Source: Candidatus Latescibacterota bacterium (lineage in GTDB: Bacteria > Latescibacterota > UBA2968 > UBA8231). Taken from it: a stretch of DNA of 64,000 nucleotides. Location of the stretch: NCBI GenBank assembly GCA_965206595.1, contig OZ242214.1, forward strand, positions 6,432,001 to 6,496,000, given 5' to 3'. Below the pieces are notes generated by a model. It made no database searches and was not told where the DNA came from. It worked only from the letters and a program-made list of their open reading frames with translations. This document shows positions 37,818-47,958 of this stretch, in pieces; positions within the stretch are counted from its first letter, which is position 1, and every line of letters starts with the position of its first letter. Both the position numbers and the translations under genes were made by a program.

Positions 37818-38672
37818 GAACCTATCTCAAAATTGAAATTGTTTAAGCAAAATCAAAATGGATGCAAGTTGGACGAAGCCAAGAAAATTCTCCGGATACA
37901 ATTCCCAGCGAGTGATCACTCGACGCTGCCATTGAAGCCAAGCAAAGAATCTCTCAACCATCCAAGGCCGCACATAACGCCGCAATCGCCGTCCATCCTG
38001 AGTCTTTTTCTTGGTCCGATTCTGGCGATGCGGGGCGATCATCTCGATCCCGTCTTTCTTAAGCTCTTCATCCAACGAATCGCTGTCGTACGCCTTGTCG
38101 CCGATCAAGTTGTCAGGTTGGTCTTCGATGAGGTAAAAGTCAAAGGTCAACTGAACCAGCGTCACTTCATGATGGTTCGCTGCATGCGTGCTCACCGACA
38201 AGGGAAGCCCATTGCCGTCCACGATCCCCATGACCCGCACCCCCTTACCTCGCCTGGTGTGGCCGATATCGGCACCTCCACCCTTGGCCGCCGAGAACAT
38301 GCCGTCGATGAAAGCCTCCGATTCGTCCAAGCCCCCTTGCTCGTGAAGGGTCTGGGCCAGGTCCATGAGAACTTCGCGTACCACCCCTTGACGACACCCG
38401 TTTTGAAAACGGCGATGCACGGTTTTGTAGTTCGGATAGCACGGCGGCAACATATGCCATTGAGCCCCGGTGTTTAGAATCCAAAGAACGGCTTCAAAAA
38501 CATCACGGGTGCAAACCGGTTTGCGACCCCGGATGGCTCTTGGGACGAAGTTCTTCAGGAAAGTGATGCCGGATTCGTTGCCATTGCATGTCGGTCAGGT
38601 TGACCATACACCAATGGTACATCACTGTCATTTCGAAAACAAGTTTAAGTTTGCCTATTTTGAGATAGGTTC
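37818..38672 (-). mobile_element. IS5-family insertion sequence, 855 bp
   Basis: Perfect 16-bp terminal IRs GAACCTATCTCAAAAT (37818-37833, 38657-38672), flanking AAGAA duplication, lower GC. Confidence 0.92.
37827..38607 (-). CDS. IS5 transposase (frameshift ~38530)
   Basis: MVNLTDMQWQRI.../GRKP..VLWILNTGAQW, IDG, GDKAYDS, VERFFAWL. Confidence 0.88.
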
Positions 38673-38847: not shown

Positions 38848-39831
38848 ATGCTTTTTTCCGTCACAACGAATCGGTGGAGCATGGCCCTCGTCCTGCTCAT
38901 CGGGCCGGCCCTGTCGGCCGAAGCCCACGTCGGCGGTCGAGTGTTCCCGATTCCCGAACTCACCGACGAAATGCTGGCCGAGATCCAGCTCGACGGCTTC
39001 GTGGAGGAGTGGTCGGATCTGATCGGCGAACCGACCCTGACCCTGCTTGACTTCACCCACGGAGGGGGGGGGGGGGGGAGCCTCGATCCGTCGGATATCG
39101 ACTTCCGGATCTGGCTGGCCTGGCACGATGATCCGGCTCGTATCTATGCAGCCTTGGTGGTCGCCGATGACGTTTACAAGAATACTCACACTTACGATGT
39201 GGATTGGGCCACCTCACTAAAAAGTAGCATGGTTGGCGGCAACGACAGTATTCGCCTTGGAGTCGACGGAGATCACAGCGGCGGTCCCGGGTTTGTTGAT
39301 CAATCATTCGAAACAAAGGAACTCGCGGAGGCCGAACTCGTGAAGGTCTCTGGGAAGACCCAGATGTATGAGGCCATTTCCCGCACTCCTGATGGACCGA
39401 CCGTGGATGCCCGGAGATCCAGGTACTGGAGCGGGGTCTTCTCCTGGATGGCCCTTCCTCCCTTCGCGGAGGCCGGCGGCAGGGTAGCCGGAGAAACGCC
39501 GGTCATCTGGTCGATCGAGCTGTACATCACGCCGTTCGACCACAGGGGGGAGGAGTTGACCAGCCCCGAAGGGAGTGTGATAAGCGATCTGAGCGCCGAT
39601 CGGTTCATCGGCTTCGCGATTGGGGTGTTTGATGAGGACGGGCGGGATCCTCATACGGAACCAAGGAGGTTGATACCGGAAGCCTTGGCGGGTCCCGATC
39701 ATGAAGTTTTTTCCGATATGTCTGATTTTCGCGCCGACAATTTTCTCGATGGGCTGCTGCTGCCGGCTGGAGGCACTGCGGTCGAGTCGGTTACCTGGGG
39801 CCGGATCAAGGCTTCCCTGGAACTGAAGTAG
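38848..39831 (+). CDS. Secreted CBM9/DOMON-like protein with WGRIKA C-terminal motif (paralog 1)
   Basis: RBS AAGGAGG, signal peptide AEA|H, AWHDDPARIY..V.DD and DSI.L.VDGD motifs, VESVTWGRIKASLELK. Confidence 0.8.
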   Translation: MLFSVTTNRWSMALVLLIGPALSAEAHVGGRVFPIPELTDEMLAEIQLDGFVEEWSDLIGEPTLTLLDFTHGGGGGGSLDPSDIDFRIWLAWHDDPARIYAALVVADDVYKNTHTYDVDWATSLKSSMVGGNDSIRLGVDGDHSGGPGFVDQSFETKELAEAELVKVSGKTQMYEAISRTPDGPTVDARRSRYWSGVFSWMALPPFAEAGGRVAGETPVIWSIELYITPFDHRGEELTSPEGSVISDLSADRFIGFAIGVFDEDGRDPHTEPRRLIPEALAGPDHEVFSDMSDFRADNFLDGLLLPAGGTAVESVTWGRIKASLELK

Positions 39832-40183
39832 CCGGCGTATCGTCCGGTCCATTTCGCAGCCTTCCTTTCAAGCCCTCGTAACATTGGCTTTCCCTAAAGC
39901 ATTCCTTCCGGCTTGGCCCTTTCCAGCCCTCCTTCTACTGAACGCACGCCTGGACCGCTCAAGCTGACCGTCTTCCTTTCGCTATGTTCGCTCCTGTGGC
40001 AGCCCCCCGCCGTGGCCCCCTACATGGAATAGAATGAACCGATGGTTAAGCAGCTGGCTGGCTGACTGGTAATCCAGGTAAGGTGGGGGAAAAACATCCG
40101 CCCCATTGTGCTGCCACACTGGCGAATCGCCAAACCGAAGACACCGAGGGGCGCGTCGGGTAGAGCCCCGTTCAAGACCGCTT

Positions 40184-43100
40184 CTATGGTTTTTCCAGCT
40201 TGTATACACGCATGCGGGAACGCAACCGCTCCTCCTTCATGCCCAATAAAGCAGCCGCGCCCTTCGGCCCATAAATGACCCCATCGGTTGTCTGCAGGGC
40301 TTCCAGGATCTGTTGCTTTTCAGTCTTGAAGACCGTGCCGGCTTCCATTCCCTCAACCTGATCGACCGGCGGGGCGGACGTCCGCGACGAAACAGGTCCA
40401 TCCCCGTCCCGGCCATCATCTAGGAATACATCCTCGAGTTGCAAGACAGGATTCCGGCACACGATCACCGCCCGCTGCATCATGTGCTCCAGCTCACGCA
40501 CGTTCCCCGGCCAGGGATACTCCTGAAAGCGCCTCAATGCCTCGGGGCTCAGAGACGGCACCGGCCACCCCAACTCCCCGGCAAACCGGTTCGCGAAGTA
40601 GGCCGCGAGGAACGGTATTTCCTCGCGGCGGTCCCGCAGGGGCGGGATTTTCACCGGGAACACGTTCAGGCGGTGGAACAGGTCTTCCCGGAACTCCCTT
40701 TTGGAGATGGCCTCATTCAAATCCCGGTTGGTCGCCGCAACCACCCGGACATCCACCTTGACAGGGGCCTGCCCGCCGACGCGGGTCAGGCGGCCCTCTT
40801 CCAAAACGTGGAGCAGAACCCTTTGGGCCTCCAAGGGCAGGTCCCCGATTTCATCGAGGAACAGGGTGCCCCCGTGCGCCTGTTCGAACCGGCCTTTCTT
40901 CGATTCTACCGCGTTGGTAAAGGCGCCCTTTTCATGGCCGAACAGTTCGCTTTCCACCAACCCCGGGGGCAGGCCTCCGCAGTTGACCGGGATAAAGGGA
41001 TGCCCCCGGCGCGGACTCGCGGCGTGAATGTGCTTGGCGAGCACCCCCTTGCCCACCCCGGTCTCCCCCAGCACCAGCACTATTGCATCGGTTTCGGCCA
41101 CCTGTTCTGCCAGTTTCAGGACCCGGGACATGACCGGACTGTTTTTGAGCATGTCCTGCCGCGAGGTCCATGGCATATGCTCCAGTTCCGGGCCGGGTGC
41201 GCCTTCCTCCTCCGCAACCACCTGCACCTCCAGGCTGACCGCGTCCGACATCAGGCCGTCCCGGTCCATGGCCCGCACCTCGAAGCGGAACCCGCCCGCA
41301 GGCAGAGCGGAGAACGAAACCCGGTTGGCGGGAGTGAACCTGCTCCAGGATTCGGCCGGGCCATGACCGACGAGCCGGTGGCTGTAGCGCATCTGCGCGG
41401 CCCCGGTTCTGAAACTGATGCCCTGAAACTCGATTCGAACCTCGCGGGTGCTGTCCGGGCAGGACACGGCCCGGGGGGCCTTGAAGAGACGCCCGGCCTC
41501 GACCCGGCCGATCACCAGGGCAGGCGGCACCTGGCCGGGCAGGTACGCGATGAGACCCGCACCCGTGCCGAACCAAAGCTGGCCGTCGCTGGCGCGCAGG
41601 ATGTCCTCGACCACGTTCTCCAGGCTGGCGTTCCCCAGGCGAAGGGTCTGGAAAGCATGCGCGTCGTACTTCATCACCCCCCCGCCGCTCGTGCCGACCC
41701 ACAGGCACCTTTTCTCCGGGTCGGCCGCCAGACAAGAGGATGCCATTGACGGATAAATCCCCCTGGTCCACGGTAAACCGGCGAACTCGCCCGGCGGTGA
41801 AATCAAGGACGAACAGGCCGTTGTTGGCCGTGCCCACCCAGAGCCTGTCTTCGTGCTCGCACAGGGCAGTCACTTGAGATACGGCCTCCAACCCGGCCAT
41901 TGCCGGCGGCTGAAAGCGGCCGTCCTCGTACCGGTACAGCGCCGGGGCGGTCCCCTCGGTGCCGGCCCAGACGGCACCGTCCCGGGCCGGCAGCACGGCG
42001 CGGCACTCGTGGGGCAGCCCTTCTGCCAACGAGTTGAACCGGTCGGCTTCTATCCGCCCCAGGCGCCCCCGGGAGGTGCCGGCCCATACACGCCCGCGGC
42101 CGTCCGCGCGCAGGGCCGTGACTTCTTCCCCGGAGCCGGTTTCGGCCACCTCGATCGCTCGGGATTCCTTTCCCGTCCACTTGAATACCTTGCCCTCCGG
42201 GCTTCCACTCCAAACCGGCCCCGGACCCTCCGCCACCAGCGCCGAGACCATGGGCCCGTTCTCCACCGTACGGATGCGGTCGTCTTCCAGGCAGGCCAAG
42301 CCCCCCATGGTGCCGATCCACAGCCGCCCCGTCCCGTCTTCGTCCAGGCACCGAACCTCGTTGTCGGGCAGACCGTCGTCTTCCGTGTACAACTGCACGC
42401 TGACCGGATCGCAGAAGAGCAGCCCGCCGCCCCACAGTCCTATCCAGATGTTTCCCTCGCGGTCCTCGTAGGTCAGCCGCGTGTCCGAGAAATGGGTACC
42501 TTGCAAGCGGGCCGAAAACGGATGCCAGGTCTGTCCGTCGTACACCAGGACCCCCCGGCGAGCCATCCACAGCCAGCCCCTGTCGTCCTGGCGCACATGC
42601 CGCGTGCCGTGCTGGACGACTTCACCGCTCTCGACCTCATGGTCCACCTCGATCAGGTCGAGCTGTTGGCGCTGGGGGTCGTAACGGCCGATAACGGCTT
42701 CGCTGCCCACGTAGCGGAAGCCGATCCACAGACCGCCGGAGGCGTCCAGGGCGAACTTCCAGGGCCACTGCATGGCGGTTTCCCCGGTGCCCAGATGCCC
42801 GTTCATGGGCTGACCTTCCAGATCGATGATCCCCCGCTCCCGCGACGCCAGCCAGGTCGTACCCGCCCCGTCGGTGGCCATGTCGTATACCGCTCCGAGG
42901 GGTTGGTCAGCAAGGTCGGTCACAGGCTCCAGGCACCGCCCCTCGACAAAGCGGGCGATCCCGTTCCCGGTCAGCACCTGTACCGAGCCGTCCGCCTGGG
43001 GGTGCAGGCTCAATATGTCGTTGGAGGGCAGTCCGTCCCCGGTGGTGTATACCTGAAACCCCTGCCCGTCGAAAGCGGCCCGCCCGCCCCCGAGAGTCCC

Positions 43101-43385
43101 GAACAACAGGCGCCCGTCCTCGTCCTCGGCGATGGTCATCGCGTTGAGATGGGGAAGCCCGTTCGAGGGACCGAAGGTCTCGAACCGGGCCCCGTCGAAG
43201 CGGCTGACCCCGCCGTCCGCGGTGGCGACCCAGAGGAGCCCCCGGCGGTCCTGGTAGATGTCTTCCACGTGCATCCCGGCCAGCCCGTCGAAGACGGTGT
43301 ACTGGCGCCCGAGCATATGATCGAAAGCCACCCGCCCACCCGCGACCCGGGTGGATGGGGAAAGGGGTTCGGGTGCCTGGTTCAT
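40184..43385 (-). CDS. Beta-propeller (two-component-regulator-type repeats)/Y_Y_Y domain fused to a sigma-54 AAA+-HTH activator (frameshift ~41735; start uncertain)
   Basis: Repeated DGL...I.ED..G.LW.GT motifs, YSHRL...W...F..L..G.F.FEVRA, GETGVGKG, GAFTNA, WPGNVRELE. Confidence 0.85.
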
Positions 43386-43501
43386 TTTCGCCTTCGTTCT
43401 CTTTGTGAATGCAAGGGGATTGCTACCTGAGGACCGTACCGATAAGGAAGAACGATAGCAGGAGCAAGCAGCCGCCGACGTCTGGCCGCTGCCCATCGGA
43501 G

Positions 43502-43668
43502 AAGTCGTATTAAATACGACTTGAGATCGAGGAGCCGGTGGCGACAGGGACGAGTCGAGGTTGGCCAAAATAAAAAATGGTGTTATAAGAGTAAGTAAAA
43601 ACAACGAGTTATGTCACCATTGGCACAATTAATTGAGCTGCAGACCATGTAAAGGCACGCTTATTGCG
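43502..43668 (+). promoter_or_regulatory. Palindromic activator box, IHF-like site and sigma-54 promoter
   Basis: AAGTCGTAT-TAA-ATACGACTT 43502-43522; AAACAACGAGTTA ~43599-43611; AGGCACGCTTATTGCG 43653-43668. Confidence 0.8.
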
Positions 43669-43727
43669 TAATATCTGGATGAACCGGGGTAGCGACAGGC
43701 GCGACCCCGGAAACAAAGGAGGCAGTA

Positions 43728-43955
43728 ATGTCGCATCTTGCGAAGTACATCGTCGCCGTTCTGCTGGGCGCAGGGGTCCTGCTGGGCGGTGCATCCCTCG
43801 TGGACGCCCACTCCAAGAGTGAGAGTTGGTGGAGCCACTACCAGTACGCCCAGACCGAGAGCCTGTGCGCCTACGAGTGCGCGCTGAAGAACCACGATAG
43901 TTACGACTGGGACTGCGATGATGATGGTGATCACGCATGCTCCTGCAGGTACTGA
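43728..43955 (+). CDS. Small secreted Cys/Asp-rich peptide
   Basis: RBS AAGGAGG, hydrophobic signal peptide VDA|H, 5 Cys; first ORF after the sigma-54 promoter. Confidence 0.65.
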   Translation: MSHLAKYIVAVLLGAGVLLGGASLVDAHSKSESWWSHYQYAQTESLCAYECALKNHDSYDWDCDDDGDHACSCRY

Positions 43956-44136
43956 CTGCCAGGACTCGGAACCGCGCCCAGGCCTGCGCCCGGATGAAGA
44001 GTGCGCCAACGCCCTTGACCATGGGGCGTTGGCGCACCGTACACACCGATTTCGTGGAAAGAAACAAACGGGTCTTGCCGGACTCGATGAATCGTCCGGC
44101 GATCCGGTGACTTGTGACCAGGGAGAAAAAGACAAG

Positions 44137-45081
44137 ATGACCTGCATCCAGATAAAAAAGCAGTTGTCCCCTGCAGTGAGCCTGCTCATGCTGGTGGCAC
44201 TGGCGGCTGGCCTGTCTGCCCGGGCAGACGCCCACAGCGGCGGCCGCGTGTACCCGATTGCCTATCTCAGCGACGAGATGCTGGCCGAAATCCGGCTCGA
44301 CGACGGCCGCATAGACGAATGGATCGAGCTGGTAGGCGAGCCGGCCATGACCCTGCTGGATTTTTCAGAAGACCAGGGGTTCCCACTTGATCCGTCCAAC
44401 TTGGACTTCCAGATCTGGTTGGGTTGGCACGACGACCCTGCACGCATTTATGCAGCCTGCGTGGCCAGCGATGACGTGTACATGAACACCCACGACTACG
44501 ATGCAGTTCGGGGATCTCTTCGAGGTAATATTGAAATGCATGACAGTGTGGCCCTCGCAATCGATGGAGATCACAGCGGGGGTGTGGGCACCGACAATAC
44601 ATCACGCGAGCAATCAATGCAGGTCCATAGTGAAACTCAATACTATGAGGCCATCGCCCGCACCGTGAGCGGCCCGACTCTGGATGACATCCTCATCAGG
44701 CCCTGGACGGTCCTGCCCCCCTATGGGGAAGGGGGAGGAGGGGTCTTCGGAGAAGCGCCCGTCATCAGCGTGATCGAGCTGTATGTAACGCCGTTCGACC
44801 ATTTGGAGGAAGATAACCCCGAGGGGAGCGTGGTCAGCGATCTGACCGCGGGGAAGGTCATCGGTTTTGCCATTATGATAAGTGACTGGGACCAGGAAGA
44901 TTGGAAACGTATCTGGACACCCGAAGCCATGCAATCTGAAACTAATGATACCCGAATCGACATAACTCGCCGTCGTGCTGATCGCTTTCTCGATGGGATT
45001 CTGCTGTCCCCGAACTCGACCGAACCGGAAGGCACTGTGGTCGAGTGGACAACCTGGGGCAGAATCAAGGCCTCCCTTTGA
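44137..45081 (+). CDS. Secreted CBM9/DOMON-like WGRIKA protein (paralog 2)
   Basis: ADA|HSGGRVYPI...VEWTTWGRIKASL; an extra T near 45077 truncates the EME tail. Confidence 0.8.
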   Translation: MTCIQIKKQLSPAVSLLMLVALAAGLSARADAHSGGRVYPIAYLSDEMLAEIRLDDGRIDEWIELVGEPAMTLLDFSEDQGFPLDPSNLDFQIWLGWHDDPARIYAACVASDDVYMNTHDYDAVRGSLRGNIEMHDSVALAIDGDHSGGVGTDNTSREQSMQVHSETQYYEAIARTVSGPTLDDILIRPWTVLPPYGEGGGGVFGEAPVISVIELYVTPFDHLEEDNPEGSVVSDLTAGKVIGFAIMISDWDQEDWKRIWTPEAMQSETNDTRIDITRRRADRFLDGILLSPNSTEPEGTVVEWTTWGRIKASL

Positions 45082-45091
45082 GATGGAATAG

Positions 45092-45185
45092 CATGCGTTT
45101 CGGGCACTTCGTCCATCCGAAGTCGTTCCAGGCGGCCCGATAGGTCGTCCGGCGATATCCGTTCTTGAACTAAGGAGAGTAGCCG
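45092..45185. repeat. Structured intergenic repeat, copy 1
   Basis: Near-identical to 46164-46259; two hairpins. Confidence 0.85.
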
Positions 45186-46163
45186 ATGACTCTTCCCCGG
45201 ATCGAGAAACGATGTCGCGCCCCCCTGTTCCTGCTCCTCCTGCTGGCCGTCTCGGCCGGCCTGTCTGCCCAGGCCGGGGCCCACAGCGGCGGCCGCGTAT
45301 TCCCTATTCCAGAGCTAACGGACGAGATGCTGGAACAGATCCAGCTCGACGACGGCTCGGTAGACGAATGGTTCGAGTTGATCGGCGAGCCGGCCATGAC
45401 CCTGCTGGATTTTCAGACCCACAGCAACTTCCTACCGCCGGATCCCTCCAATCTCGACTTCCGCATCTGGCTGGCCTGGCACGACGACCCGGATCGTCTC
45501 TACGTCGCCTTCGTGGGCGCCGATGATCTGTACAAGAACAACCACGACTACGATGCTTTTGGCGTCCGAAGTTCTATCGACAGCCATGACAGCATCACTC
45601 TGGCCATCGACGGAGATCACAGCGGCGGGGCAGGGGTAACCAGCACTTCGTCGCAAGAGGAATTGCTGGAGGCAAGGGGCCAAACTCAGCGATATGAGGC
45701 GATTGCCCGCACCGTCAGCGGGCCGCTCATCAGTAACGGGCTTTATGAAGGGACCGGGGTATTCTCCTGGAAGGTGTTTCCTCCGTACGGGGATGCCGGC
45801 GGGGGCGTCTTCGGGGAAGCGCCGGTCATCAGCGTAATCGAGCTGTATGTCACCCCGTACGACCGGTGGGGGGCGTGGAATGAGATCGAAGAGACCGAGT
45901 TCAGCGATCTGGCCGCGGGACAGGTGATCGGCTTTGCGATCATGGTGAATGACCGGGACGACGAAGAGTTAGGCGGGTGGCCCTGGACACCCGAAGCCAT
46001 GGAGCCCAGTAATCCCCGTCACGGTACGGAAGTCGACATGCGGAAAGTTCGAGCGGATTTCTTTCTCGACGGCATCCTGCTGCCAGCCGGCGCCGAACCG
46101 GAAGGCACCGCGGTCGAGTCGGTCTCTTGGGGGCGGATCAAGGCCTCCCTTGAGATGGAATAG
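45186..46163 (+). CDS. Secreted CBM9/DOMON-like WGRIKA protein (paralog 3)
   Basis: AGA|HSGGRVFPI...VESVSWGRIKASLEME. Confidence 0.85.
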   Translation: MTLPRIEKRCRAPLFLLLLLAVSAGLSAQAGAHSGGRVFPIPELTDEMLEQIQLDDGSVDEWFELIGEPAMTLLDFQTHSNFLPPDPSNLDFRIWLAWHDDPDRLYVAFVGADDLYKNNHDYDAFGVRSSIDSHDSITLAIDGDHSGGAGVTSTSSQEELLEARGQTQRYEAIARTVSGPLISNGLYEGTGVFSWKVFPPYGDAGGGVFGEAPVISVIELYVTPYDRWGAWNEIEETEFSDLAAGQVIGFAIMVNDRDDEELGGWPWTPEAMEPSNPRHGTEVDMRKVRADFFLDGILLPAGAEPEGTAVESVSWGRIKASLEME

Positions 46164-46259
46164 CATGCGTTTCGGACACTTCGTCCATCCGAAGTCGTTC
46201 CAGACGGCCCGATAGGTCGTCCGGCGATATCCGTTCTTGAACTAAAGGAGAGCAAGCCG
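46164..46259. repeat. Structured intergenic repeat, copy 2
   Basis: Near-identical to 45092-45185. Confidence 0.85.
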
Positions 46260-47249
46260 ATGACCCTTGCCCGGATCGAGAAACGATGTAGCACCTCCCT
46301 GTTCCTGCTCCTTTCGTTGGCCGTCTCGGCCGGCCTGTCCCCCCAGGCAGACGCCCACAGCGGCGGCCGCGTGTACCCGATTGCCTATCTCAGCGACGAG
46401 ATGCTGGAACAGATCCAGCTCGACGACGGCTCGGTAGACGAATGGTTCGAGCTGATCGGCGAGCCGGCCATGACCCTGCTGGATTTTTCCAGCCAGAATG
46501 ACTTCGAGGCTCTTGATCCGTCCGACCTGGATTTCCGCATCTGGCTGGCCTGGAACGATGACCCCGACCGTCTCTACGTGGCTTTCGTGTCCAGCGACGA
46601 CGTGTACACGAACAATCACGACTACGAAGCAATTCGGGGATCTCTTCGAGATCTCATACATCTCTATGACAGCATCACTCTGGCCATCGATGGAGATCAC
46701 AGCGGGGGCAGGGGCTGTCCCTACAATTGCCAGATGGAGGATTCGCGGGAGGTCCGTAGCAGAACGCAGCGCTACGAGGCCATCGCGCGCACCGTCAGCG
46801 GTCCCACCCTGGATGATTCATCTACCAGATATATAACGGAAGAGATCGCCTGGACGGTCCTGCCTCCCTACGGGCAGGGAGGCGGCGGCGTAGCAGGGGA
46901 AGCCCCGACGATCAGCGTGATCGAGTTCTACGTCACCCCGTTTGACCGCTTTTCGTCCGATGACCCCGAGGGGAGCGTGGTCAGCGATCTGGCCGCGGGC
47001 CAGGTCATCGGCTTTGCTATCATGGTCAATGACTGGGATAGTTTTGATAGGGACAATGGGGATACATCGTACTGGGTACCCGAAGCCATGAATCGCGGTG
47101 ATGCCGACGACAGGCAGCATGAGATAGATGCCGGTTGGGCGGATCTTTTTCTCGACGGCATCCTGCTGCCGGCCGGCGCCGGGCCGGAAGACACCGCGGT
47201 CGAGTCGGTCTCCTGGGGGCGGATCAAGGCCTCCCTGGAGATGGAGTAA
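46260..47249 (+). CDS. Secreted CBM9/DOMON-like WGRIKA protein (paralog 4)
   Basis: ADA|HSGGRVYPI...VESVSWGRIKASLEME. Confidence 0.85.
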   Translation: MTLARIEKRCSTSLFLLLSLAVSAGLSPQADAHSGGRVYPIAYLSDEMLEQIQLDDGSVDEWFELIGEPAMTLLDFSSQNDFEALDPSDLDFRIWLAWNDDPDRLYVAFVSSDDVYTNNHDYEAIRGSLRDLIHLYDSITLAIDGDHSGGRGCPYNCQMEDSREVRSRTQRYEAIARTVSGPTLDDSSTRYITEEIAWTVLPPYGQGGGGVAGEAPTISVIEFYVTPFDRFSSDDPEGSVVSDLAAGQVIGFAIMVNDWDSFDRDNGDTSYWVPEAMNRGDADDRQHEIDAGWADLFLDGILLPAGAGPEDTAVESVSWGRIKASLEME

Positions 47250-47333
47250 CCCGTCATCCCCTCATCGAGCCCTCGACGGGTTACCCAAACTCGACCGACC
47301 CCCCTTCCCAATCACACTTCACGGGACTGACCC

Positions 47334-47958
47334 ATGACTGGATCGCCTTGCAGGCTGACAGCCGGCTTGTCCCTTTTTTCGCTTCTCTGGCAGCTGTCCA
47401 ATCCGGAGGCGGCCCACAGCCAGGTCGAGAGCGTCTTTCGCATGGCTCGGGACGGATCCTCCATCGAGCGCCTGTCCTCGACAGAGGGCCGGACCACTCC
47501 AACCTGGAGGCAGGACGGCCGGTTATTGTACGTGGCGCACACCGAAAATGGGAACGAGTTTCACCTCGCCTCCCCGGCCGGGGAGGTACTCCTGAGAGTG
47601 CCGGTACCGCCGCGGATAACCAGCGTGGGCGGGGTATCCTGGTTTCCCGACGGCACCCGGATCGCCTTCGCCGGAAAAACAGAGGAGCTGGAGTCCTACG
47701 ACATCTACGTCATGAAGCTCGGTGCCGGAGACGCGGCCATTGAGCCGATCCTGGCGGACGCCATCCAGCCGGCCTTATCGCCTGACGGACAACACCTCGC
47801 TTTCACCACCCACCGCGACGGCAATCTCGAACTGTATGTCGCCGACCACCACGGCCGGAACCTGCGTCACCCGGCTGACCTCGGGGCATGACGGCGACTG
47901 GAAGCCGGCTTGGTCACCTGACAGCAAGAGCCCCTGTTTCGTCTCCAGCCGGGAGTAA
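47334..47958 (+). pseudogene. TolB/PD40-repeat secreted protein, apparently internally deleted and frameshifted (~47866)
   Basis: SWFPDGTRIAF and PALSPDGQHLAF.THRDGNLELY; second frame RLT...PAWSPDSK. Confidence 0.65.

Follow-up and report, generated by a model that had tools for sequence, protein, structure and literature searches.

Beta-sandwich proteins of the CBM9/DOMON type are the closest described relatives of the genes considered here, the four paralogous open reading frames (ORFs) P1–P4, which lie in a 64,000-nucleotide stretch of a Candidatus Latescibacterota genome (contig OZ242214.1, positions 6,432,001–6,496,000; hereafter the window, to which all five-digit coordinates refer). 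The carbohydrate-binding module CBM9 (PF06452; 1i82, from Thermotoga maritima Xyn10A) shares with their products a beta-sandwich fold and an extracellular location, both predicted in the present case, as well as profile links that run through CBM9_1-positive paralogs. By contrast, P1–P4 fall below the Pfam model, are free-standing and not attached to a glycoside hydrolase, are ~75 residues longer in their loops, and belong to a family with a coupled N-terminal histidine, a short C-terminal tag and about 50 copies per genome. BACUNI_03838 of Bacteroides uniformis (4jpq), a putative carbohydrate-binding protein, has the same fold (Z 16.4 over 201 aligned residues) and is likewise secreted and free-standing, but the identity is only 5%, and neither a multigene expansion nor a tag is known for it. 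Histidine-brace proteins (lytic polysaccharide monooxygenases (LPMOs), CopC and YcnI) and the 'signal strapping' metalloproteins with an N-terminal histidine also have a signal peptide cut before a conserved histidine (as predicted for the family), a coupled second histidine and a beta-sandwich, although the topology of the sandwich differs from the CBM9/DOMON arrangement predicted here. In the vls, pilS and msp2 systems of pathogens, segmental gene conversion shapes multigene families of surface proteins; there too, paralogs are numerous, combine constant with variable segments and exchange short tracts by conversion, but the present family has no single expression locus with promoterless cassettes, and contigs from three studies carry its loci in identical form. 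We interpret P1–P4 as members of a lineage-specific family of secreted, single-domain, ~300-residue CBM9/DOMON-like proteins that forms a birth-and-death repertoire with gene conversion, a reading to which we assign a probability of about 0.6.

The original prediction, made from the letters of the window, had described four paralogs with a constant framework, hypervariable loops and mosaic sharing of sequence blocks. All four ORFs are present on the forward strand where it had placed them: P1 (38848–39831, 327 aa), which diverges most, with 51–55% amino-acid identity to the others; P2 (44137–45081, 314 aa); P3 (45186–46163, 325 aa), used throughout as the reference for residue numbering and for the structure model; and P4 (46260–47249, 329 aa), which combines P3-like with P2-like tracts in a mosaic. 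Overall, pairwise identities range from 51 to 67% at the amino-acid level and from 63 to 74% at the nucleotide level. The near-invariant blocks that had been listed (ELIGEPAMTLLDF, FRIWLAWHDDP, LAIDGDHSGG and YEAIARTVSGP, followed by GEAPVISVIELYVTP, IGFAI and FLDGILL) were all found in the alignment, either exactly or as a near variant in the deviating copy. The alignment also contains each instance of sharing that had been noted, namely that of VFPIPELTDEML by P1 and P3, of VYPIAYLSDEML, RGSLR and PEGSVVSDL by P2 and P4, and of the leader and tail by P3 and P4.

The four proteins have a common layout, in which a basic and then leucine-rich leader ends in AxA, the mature part begins with a histidine, and the chain closes with the tail ...TAVESVSWGRIKASL(EME). 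In P3, the predicted signal peptide comprises residues 1–32 (45186–45281, + strand), with a basic n-region, a leucine-rich core and AGA immediately before the histidine. Across the 50 near-full-length copies in the same genome (see below), position −1 is alanine in 47 and position −3 is A, V, S or G in 43. Comparison of 45070–45081 with 46150–46163 shows the tail of P2 to be three residues shorter, EME being absent because one extra T in CCCTTTGAG puts a TGA in frame. The spacer after P2 is nearly identical to that after P3. P1–P4 are single-domain proteins and are not appended to a carbohydrate-active enzyme.

While the pattern of the original prediction stands, its scale was too small, and the N-terminal histidine triad, the C-terminal tag and the sigma-54 module described below had gone unnoticed. 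The genome, a single 7.05-Mb contig in which the window occupies 6.432–6.496 Mb, contains 95 family matches; a profile built from the four proteins matches 103 open frames, 50 of them near full length and 52 partial, the latter in 39 loci. The partial frames are largely frameshifted or truncated, and many partial loci consist of adjacent pieces of one frameshifted copy. Copies occur as singletons and in tandem arrays of up to eight (6.975–6.984 Mb). The youngest duplicates seen, c27432m, c27470m and c27514m at 2743246–2752345, differ by a synonymous divergence (dS) of 0.02–0.11 and share long identical upstream stretches. Of the 75 genomes in the taxonomic family to which the window belongs, 73 have members, but few genomes elsewhere in the phylum do. 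A first look gave 153–165 candidates in three genomes of the genus versus 10–100 elsewhere; these counts are not copy numbers, scoring having been capped at 13 candidates per genome. Clustered at 50% identity, the public sequences of the family fall into 922 clusters whose only annotation is 'hypothetical', and no published description of it was found in a literature search that omits most subscription journals. Longer fused homologs numbered only three among 8,000 scored candidates, which suggests, though weakly, that fusions are rare.

An alignment of the 50 copies confirmed the division into a constant framework and loops that differ in both sequence and length. Conserved blocks coincide with predicted strands, and seven variable segments (about 77–86, 119–134, 149–166, 181–196, 228–240, 258–292 and 300–308 in P3 numbering) hold nearly all substitutions and all of the length change, with length ranges that include 6–18, 5–21, 8–24, 11–30 and 27–39 residues. 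The non-synonymous difference between P3 and P4 rises from 0.06 in the framework to 0.44 in the variable segments, which across the copies are enriched in Ser, Thr, Glu, Asn, Pro and Trp. The loops had also been described as AT-richer, which is borne out most clearly at third codon positions: G+C content at these positions (GC3) is 0.601 in variable and 0.715 in conserved columns, and is lower in the variable segments of 47 of the 50 copies (Wilcoxon p=4e-13). GC-biased gene conversion in blocks that still recombine may be one cause of the higher GC3 of the conserved blocks. The island of ~37.6–47.3 kb that contains P1–P4 has itself a G+C content of 55–62%, versus 65–73% in its flanks, and GC3 of the four genes is 0.64–0.75 versus mostly 0.8–0.94 in adjacent housekeeping genes.

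The suggestion of a CBM9/DOMON-like beta-sandwich is supported both by fold searches and by sequence bridges to CBM9_1. An AlphaFold2 model of P3, computed from a 45-row alignment, has a mean predicted local distance difference test score (pLDDT) of 71 and a predicted template modelling score of 0.75. Foldseek placed CBM9 first (1i82_A, E=1.7e-7, TM score 0.74 normalized to the target), followed by 7nwn and 7nwo, with NxrC, BACUNI_03838 and EbdC next. A VIA-align comparison with 48,161 chains gave 1i82_A at Z 17.5 (189 of 189 residues aligned, root mean squared deviation 2.7), 4jpq_B at Z 16.4, 7b04_C (NxrC) at Z 10.9 and 2ivf_C (EbdC) at Z 10.7, before a drop to 6.6. On the sequence side, hhalign relates the family profile to a tagged, CBM9_1-positive paralog with 89.8% probability (E=1.8e-6 over 261 columns); six other frames of the genome pass the CBM9_1 cut-off; a homolog of 1,813 aa (E=2e-42) is annotated with CBM9_1 and FlgD_ig and has no hydrolase domain on record; and CBM9_1 is assigned to 37%, 13% and 97% of members in the nearest ESM Atlas clusters. 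Four tryptophans (W62, W95, W98 and W195) are invariant in the family. Taken together, the model and these profile links place the family in the CBM9/DOMON-like superfamily, as a divergent branch whose members stand alone.

The C-terminal tail, with consensus TAVExxSWGRIKASL and represented in P3 by TAVESVSWGRIKASLEME (46107–46160, + strand), is present in 47 of the 50 copies and extends beyond the family. A pattern of [ST]AV..., then [ST]WGx[IVL]K, then 1–12 residues closes 32 open frames outside it, and a looser motif occurs at the end of 39 frames versus 7 in a control window 40–60 residues from the end. A Pfam search of 20 such non-family frames returned eight PD40 propellers, one BNR-like protein, one CBM9_1 protein, two lipocalin-like proteins and eight without a match. 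These tagged non-family frames look secreted (for example L091–L093, L098, L101, L102, L107 and L108). At the DNA level, a scan of 168 genomes for a WGRIK-encoding pattern gave 64, 45 and 74 occurrences in the three genomes of the genus (reversed control, 0) and 0–6 in most of the phylum's remaining families. Since the tail is common to unrelated frames that appear to be secreted, it is probably a sorting or anchoring tag, and its sequence distribution makes it a candidate for a C-terminal signal of this kind that has not been described. The C-terminal domains of type IX secretion provide the nearest parallel, being likewise C-terminal elements common to unrelated secreted proteins, and a distant homolog of the family ends in FlgD_ig instead of the tag; the tag, however, is only about 12–18 residues long. 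Identity with a type IX domain was ruled out, as P1–P4, whose tail after the last strand spans ~25 residues, gave no Por_Secre_tail or FlgD_ig match in Pfam or NCBIfam. The genome has 18 other frames over the Por_Secre_tail cut-off (19 matches in all), so both signals coexist.

Mosaic sharing exceeds chance in P4, at third codon positions as well as over all sites. Sites at which P4 agrees with only P3 or only P2 fall into 70 runs against 110.5 expected (0 of 5,000 permutations as low), and at third positions alone into 34 runs against 49.5 expected (p=0.0008). A negative control, in which P1 was compared with P3 and P2, gave no mosaic signal (p=0.47). In the nucleotide alignment both the leader and the tail of P4 are P3-like. 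Between them, a tract of about codons 29–49 (46344–46406, + strand) is identical to P2 and differs from P3 at 11 places, with a sliding P2–P4 identity of 0.97 versus 0.72 overall; the adjoining tract (46407–46490, + strand) has a single difference from P3, is separated from P2 by about 12, and reaches a sliding P3–P4 identity of 0.98. Further P2-like tracts in P4 include EAIRGSLR, TLDD...WTVLPP and PEGSVVSDL. A second case is copy c69786m in the array at 6.98 Mb, which is a mosaic of its neighbours (20 runs at third positions against 45.1 expected, z=−6.09). It is also the strongest signal in a third-position triplet test of 26 close copies, in which the median z was −0.31 and 6 of 7,782 triplets passed Bonferroni correction. 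A four-taxon runs test of P1–P4 was significant over all sites (p=0.0002) and not at third positions (p=0.47). Intergenic spacers between copies are likewise homogenised. Short-tract gene conversion between neighbouring copies is thus real. The proposal that recombination or gene conversion diversifies the loops holds as regards exchange between copies; conversion as the source of loop novelty is not supported. It reshuffles existing tracts, mostly of the framework with some loop pieces. A GENECONV-like scan for the longest identical run was not relied on: many pairs sat at the floor p-value in conserved stretches, the scan being confounded by differences in rate, and only one pair passed the global test. 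Nor were 'joints' between paralogs in short-read contigs read as recombination, since they fall where paralogs share conserved blocks. Diverged contig pieces in run X9 may be other paralogs.

The residue that follows the AxA site is histidine in 44 of the 50 copies and glutamine in the other six. In P3 this residue is His33 (codon 45282–45284, + strand), the predicted first residue of the mature protein, and it covaries with His145 of the DGDHSGG motif (45618–45620, + strand) and Asp295 of the FLDGILL block (46068–46070, + strand). Among 114 representative sequences, His145 is found in 88 of 89 that have His33 and is lost in 13 of the 25 that do not (Fisher p=1.5e-9), while Asp295 occurs in 81 of 83 with His33 versus 12 of 24 without it (Fisher p=7.7e-8); the control positions D142, Y170 and D291 show no association with His33. 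Of 38,781 position pairs ranked by corrected mutual information (275 sequences, effective number 190), 145–295 comes 3rd, 35–145 17th, 33–145 35th and 33–295 70th. The six Gln-type copies, which form one clade (support 95, in a quick tree used for this point only), also change His145 (to Lys or Arg in five, Lys in four) and, in five, Asp295, and keep the other invariant residues. A fused homolog in which the domain is internal, and which has no free N-terminal histidine, carries Trp at 145 and Ala at 295, while relatives at 34–40% identity retain the N-terminal histidine, the triad and the C-terminal tag. Cleavage at AxA before His33 is predicted from the leader sequence. The covariation of His33 with His145 and Asp295 suggests a putative metal site that requires a free N-terminus, in which His1 of the mature protein, His145 and Asp295 would come together as one site, probably holding a metal.

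Taken as such a family, the proteins may be pictured as follows. A Sec signal peptide would export each copy and be cut at AxA, so that the histidine becomes residue 1; His1, His145 and Asp295 would then form one site, probably for a transition-metal ion. The tail TAVExxSWGRIKASL would direct the protein to its destination, at the outer membrane or beyond it, or dock it there. The core would stay fixed while the loops that surround it endow each copy with a ligand surface of its own, glycans being the likeliest ligands, and the copies together would constitute a germline-encoded repertoire of binders, or of metal-dependent glycan-acting proteins. This repertoire would arise by tandem and segmental duplication and by point changes and insertions or deletions in weakly constrained loops; gene conversion would reshuffle tracts, and copies would frequently be lost through frameshift and insertion of insertion sequences. 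Diversification would on this account be neither programmed nor somatic.

Several observations weigh against this reading or parts of it. Model confidence is middling (pLDDT 71), with values below 50 in residues 176–180, 197–205 and the whole tail; P1–P4 had no usable Pfam or NCBIfam match at E up to 1 and did not reach the CBM9_1 cut-off, and a profile search gave no sequence match in the PDB other than a chance one at E=0.4. The Fisher tests that link His33 to His145 and Asp295 ignore the relatedness of the sequences, and the N-terminal histidine is absent from six copies of the genome (one clade) and from 25 of the 114 representatives, so the site is not essential to the fold. Runs tests over all sites are inflated (median z −1.58 over 7,800 triplets), and third-position results were therefore relied on; the pairwise homoplasy index (PHI) for 26 copies was significant only at a window of 20, and not at 50, at 100 or at third positions. 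A sigma-54 promoter was found upstream of none of the 50 copies with a simple, narrow regular expression, which makes this a weak negative; an activator of the corresponding class lies between P1 and P2, as described below. A loop ratio of non-synonymous to synonymous substitution rates (dN/dS) near 1, together with 39 broken loci, is in keeping with selection that is weak or absent in much of the family.

The alternative that fares best overlaps with the preferred reading and makes the triad its centre: the proteins would be a new kind of histidine-brace-type metalloprotein on a CBM9/DOMON scaffold, holding copper or another transition metal for LPMO-like oxidation of polysaccharides or for CopC- or 'anglerase'-like capture of metal. 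The predicted N-terminal histidine of 44 of the 50 copies and of relatives at 34–40% identity, the tight coupling of positions 33, 145 and 295, and the joint loss of their residues in the internal-domain homolog would all be expected of such a site. Fungal LPMO genes form large families with variable substrate-facing loops, and CopC has an aspartate ligand; by analogy, the paralog number and variable loops of the present family parallel the former. One report, which does not mention CBM or DOMON folds, describes a histidine that follows a signal peptide and becomes N-terminal as a metal chelator in any fold (PMC12537917). LPMO and CopC have in common a site of an N-terminal and a second histidine (PMC7529816). 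On the other hand, no LPMO, CopC or YcnI structure is among the fold-search matches listed, an absence that does not exclude the fold; no axial Tyr or Phe was identified; and the histidine is missing from a quarter of the representatives. Many acidic residues (DGD, D113, D114, D256 and D258) suggest calcium sites of the carbohydrate-binding-module type instead, and CBM9 binds calcium. Overall we consider a histidine-brace identity rather unlikely. We give a similarly low probability to the most far-reaching version of these ideas, an undescribed class of secreted metalloproteins in one Latescibacterota lineage, with a histidine-brace-like site on a CBM9/DOMON sandwich, metal-dependent action on or binding of host or dietary polysaccharides, a new C-terminal sorting tag and some fifty loop-diversified paralogs.

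Whether the family is an antibody-like adaptive repertoire, as the original prediction had it, turns on selection and on the time scale of change. Such a repertoire would have its loops on one face under diversifying selection, with recombination making new specificities on a short time scale. The sharp contrast between framework and loops, the enrichment of the latter in Trp, Ser, Thr, Asn and acidic residues, the very high copy number, and mosaic tracts that include loop pieces such as RGSLR and PEGSVVSDL are all in keeping with it. Pooled over five young pairs, dN/dS is 0.28 in the framework (confidence interval (CI) 0.20–0.38; single pairs 0.10–0.43) and 0.81 in the loops (CI 0.60–1.11), exceeding 1 in only 8.65% of bootstraps. 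Single-pair loop values are 0.34–0.81 for the older pairs and 1.6–1.9 for the three youngest, which speaks for diversification, but the intervals are wide and all include 1. Since the pooled interval for the loops also spans 1, diversifying selection is not demonstrated, and near-neutral loop drift is compatible with the data; the dN/dS comparison that had been proposed as a check thus finds loops near neutrality. Strand order in the model further suggests that at least segment 119–134 lies at the opposite end of strand 136–142 from His145, which would speak against a single variable face.

Nor was a programmed diversifier found. Contigs from three studies contain long pieces with 0 differences over the loops of P2, P3 and P4 (for example 45467–46203 and 46460–47300), although one run may be the source sample, and contigs hide rare variants. 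No reverse transcriptase lies near the window, the only two RVT_1 matches of the genome being over 350 kb away, at 6.113 and 2.643 Mb. On these grounds a diversity-generating retroelement target was set aside, a template repeat not having been searched for. Each of the 50 copies has its own start codon and leader, most of them visibly with a purine-rich ribosome-binding stretch. Cassette-based antigenic variation was rejected because these copies do not form a single expression site fed by promoterless, silent cassettes. With no programmed diversifier, individual starts and leaders, and identical loops in three studies, the antibody analogy fails as mechanism and is unproven as function, and we regard an adaptive repertoire of this kind as unlikely.

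An insertion sequence of ~855 bp (37818–38672, − strand; DDE transposase ORF 37827–38453, Pfam DDE_Tnp_1 E=2.8e-11) lies 175 bp upstream of P1, and ~25 further copies of it occur in the genome at 91–99% identity, several of which abut family or tagged genes (for example near 4.2719, 5.7923 and 7.0140 Mb). Between P1 and P2, on the opposite strand, is a sigma-54-dependent activator with a Reg_prop beta-propeller and a Y_Y_Y sensor (40184–43604, − strand; Pfam Sigma54_activat E=6e-68, AAA_lid_14, Reg_prop E=4e-32 and Y_Y_Y), which is split into two ORFs in different frames (41803–43604 and 40184–41806). A 3.5-kb segment that covers most of it (40029–43509) recurs at two further genomic sites with identities of 90% and 86%, and at both sites a family array lies within 1 kb; the family genes beside these segments are only 65–75% identical. 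Downstream of P4 follows a shortened PD40 beta-propeller ORF of 185 aa (47334–47891, + strand; Pfam PD40 E=2.3e-16), whose homologs after family copies at about 0.3725, 0.4499 and 4.2692 Mb have 319–330 aa and leaders that also end in Ala-His. The arrangement of a family copy, a divergently oriented activator, an array and a PD40 gene is thus a duplicated module that occurs three times in the genome. The activator is split in all three copies (the window, 6970436–6973915 and 519139–522680), and that of the window carries three extra 1-nt insertions or deletions near 41830, 41733 and 41678; the split may go back to an old frameshift that was duplicated along with the module, may reflect two genuine genes, or may be an assembly error.

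These features lend some colour to the view that the family reflects mostly neutral turnover, in which tandem duplication and insertion-sequence activity in a dispensable region of lower G+C content leave redundant or decaying members whose loop differences are meaningless. There are 39 broken loci beside 50 intact copies, insertion-sequence copies abut family genes, the regulator is split in all of its copies, GC3 of P1–P4 (0.64–0.75) is below that of most nearby genes (0.8–0.94), and loop dN/dS is compatible with 1. Against this stand the clear purifying selection on the framework (dN/dS 0.28, CI 0.20–0.38), the retention of leaders and of tags in 47 of the 50 copies, the occurrence of the proteins in 73 of the taxonomic family's 75 genomes, several genera having many copies, and the persistence of triad and tag at 34–40% identity, so that we hold turnover of this sort to be quite unlikely as the main explanation.

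Least probable is a haem-binding DOMON-type protein like EbdC or NxrC, with His33 and His145 (Lys145 in the Gln-type) as axial ligands and a role in extracellular electron transfer or haem capture, for although 7b04_C (Z 10.9), 2ivf_C (Z 10.7) and the cytochrome domains of cellobiose dehydrogenases (Z 5.1–5.2) are among the fold matches, and Lys replaces His145 in four of the six Gln-type copies much as EbdC uses a lysine ligand, CBM9 and the Bacteroides carbohydrate-binding protein score far higher (Z 17.5 and 16.4), the sequence bridges reach CBM9_1 and not a haem-binding family, genes for redox partners are absent nearby, and fifty haem proteins with variable loops would have no evident rationale.

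The family of secreted CBM9/DOMON-like proteins that we favour occupies a visible share of a 7-Mb genome, and its arrays, as a clean natural example of birth-and-death evolution accompanied by short-tract gene conversion, allow framework to be compared with loops. The coupled triad, if correct, would extend the rule that an N-terminal histidine means metal to the CBM9/DOMON fold, and the short tag on unrelated proteins that appear to be secreted points to a sorting or anchoring step that has probably not been described. If the copies do bind different glycans, the family would amount to a ready-made library of small binding scaffolds.

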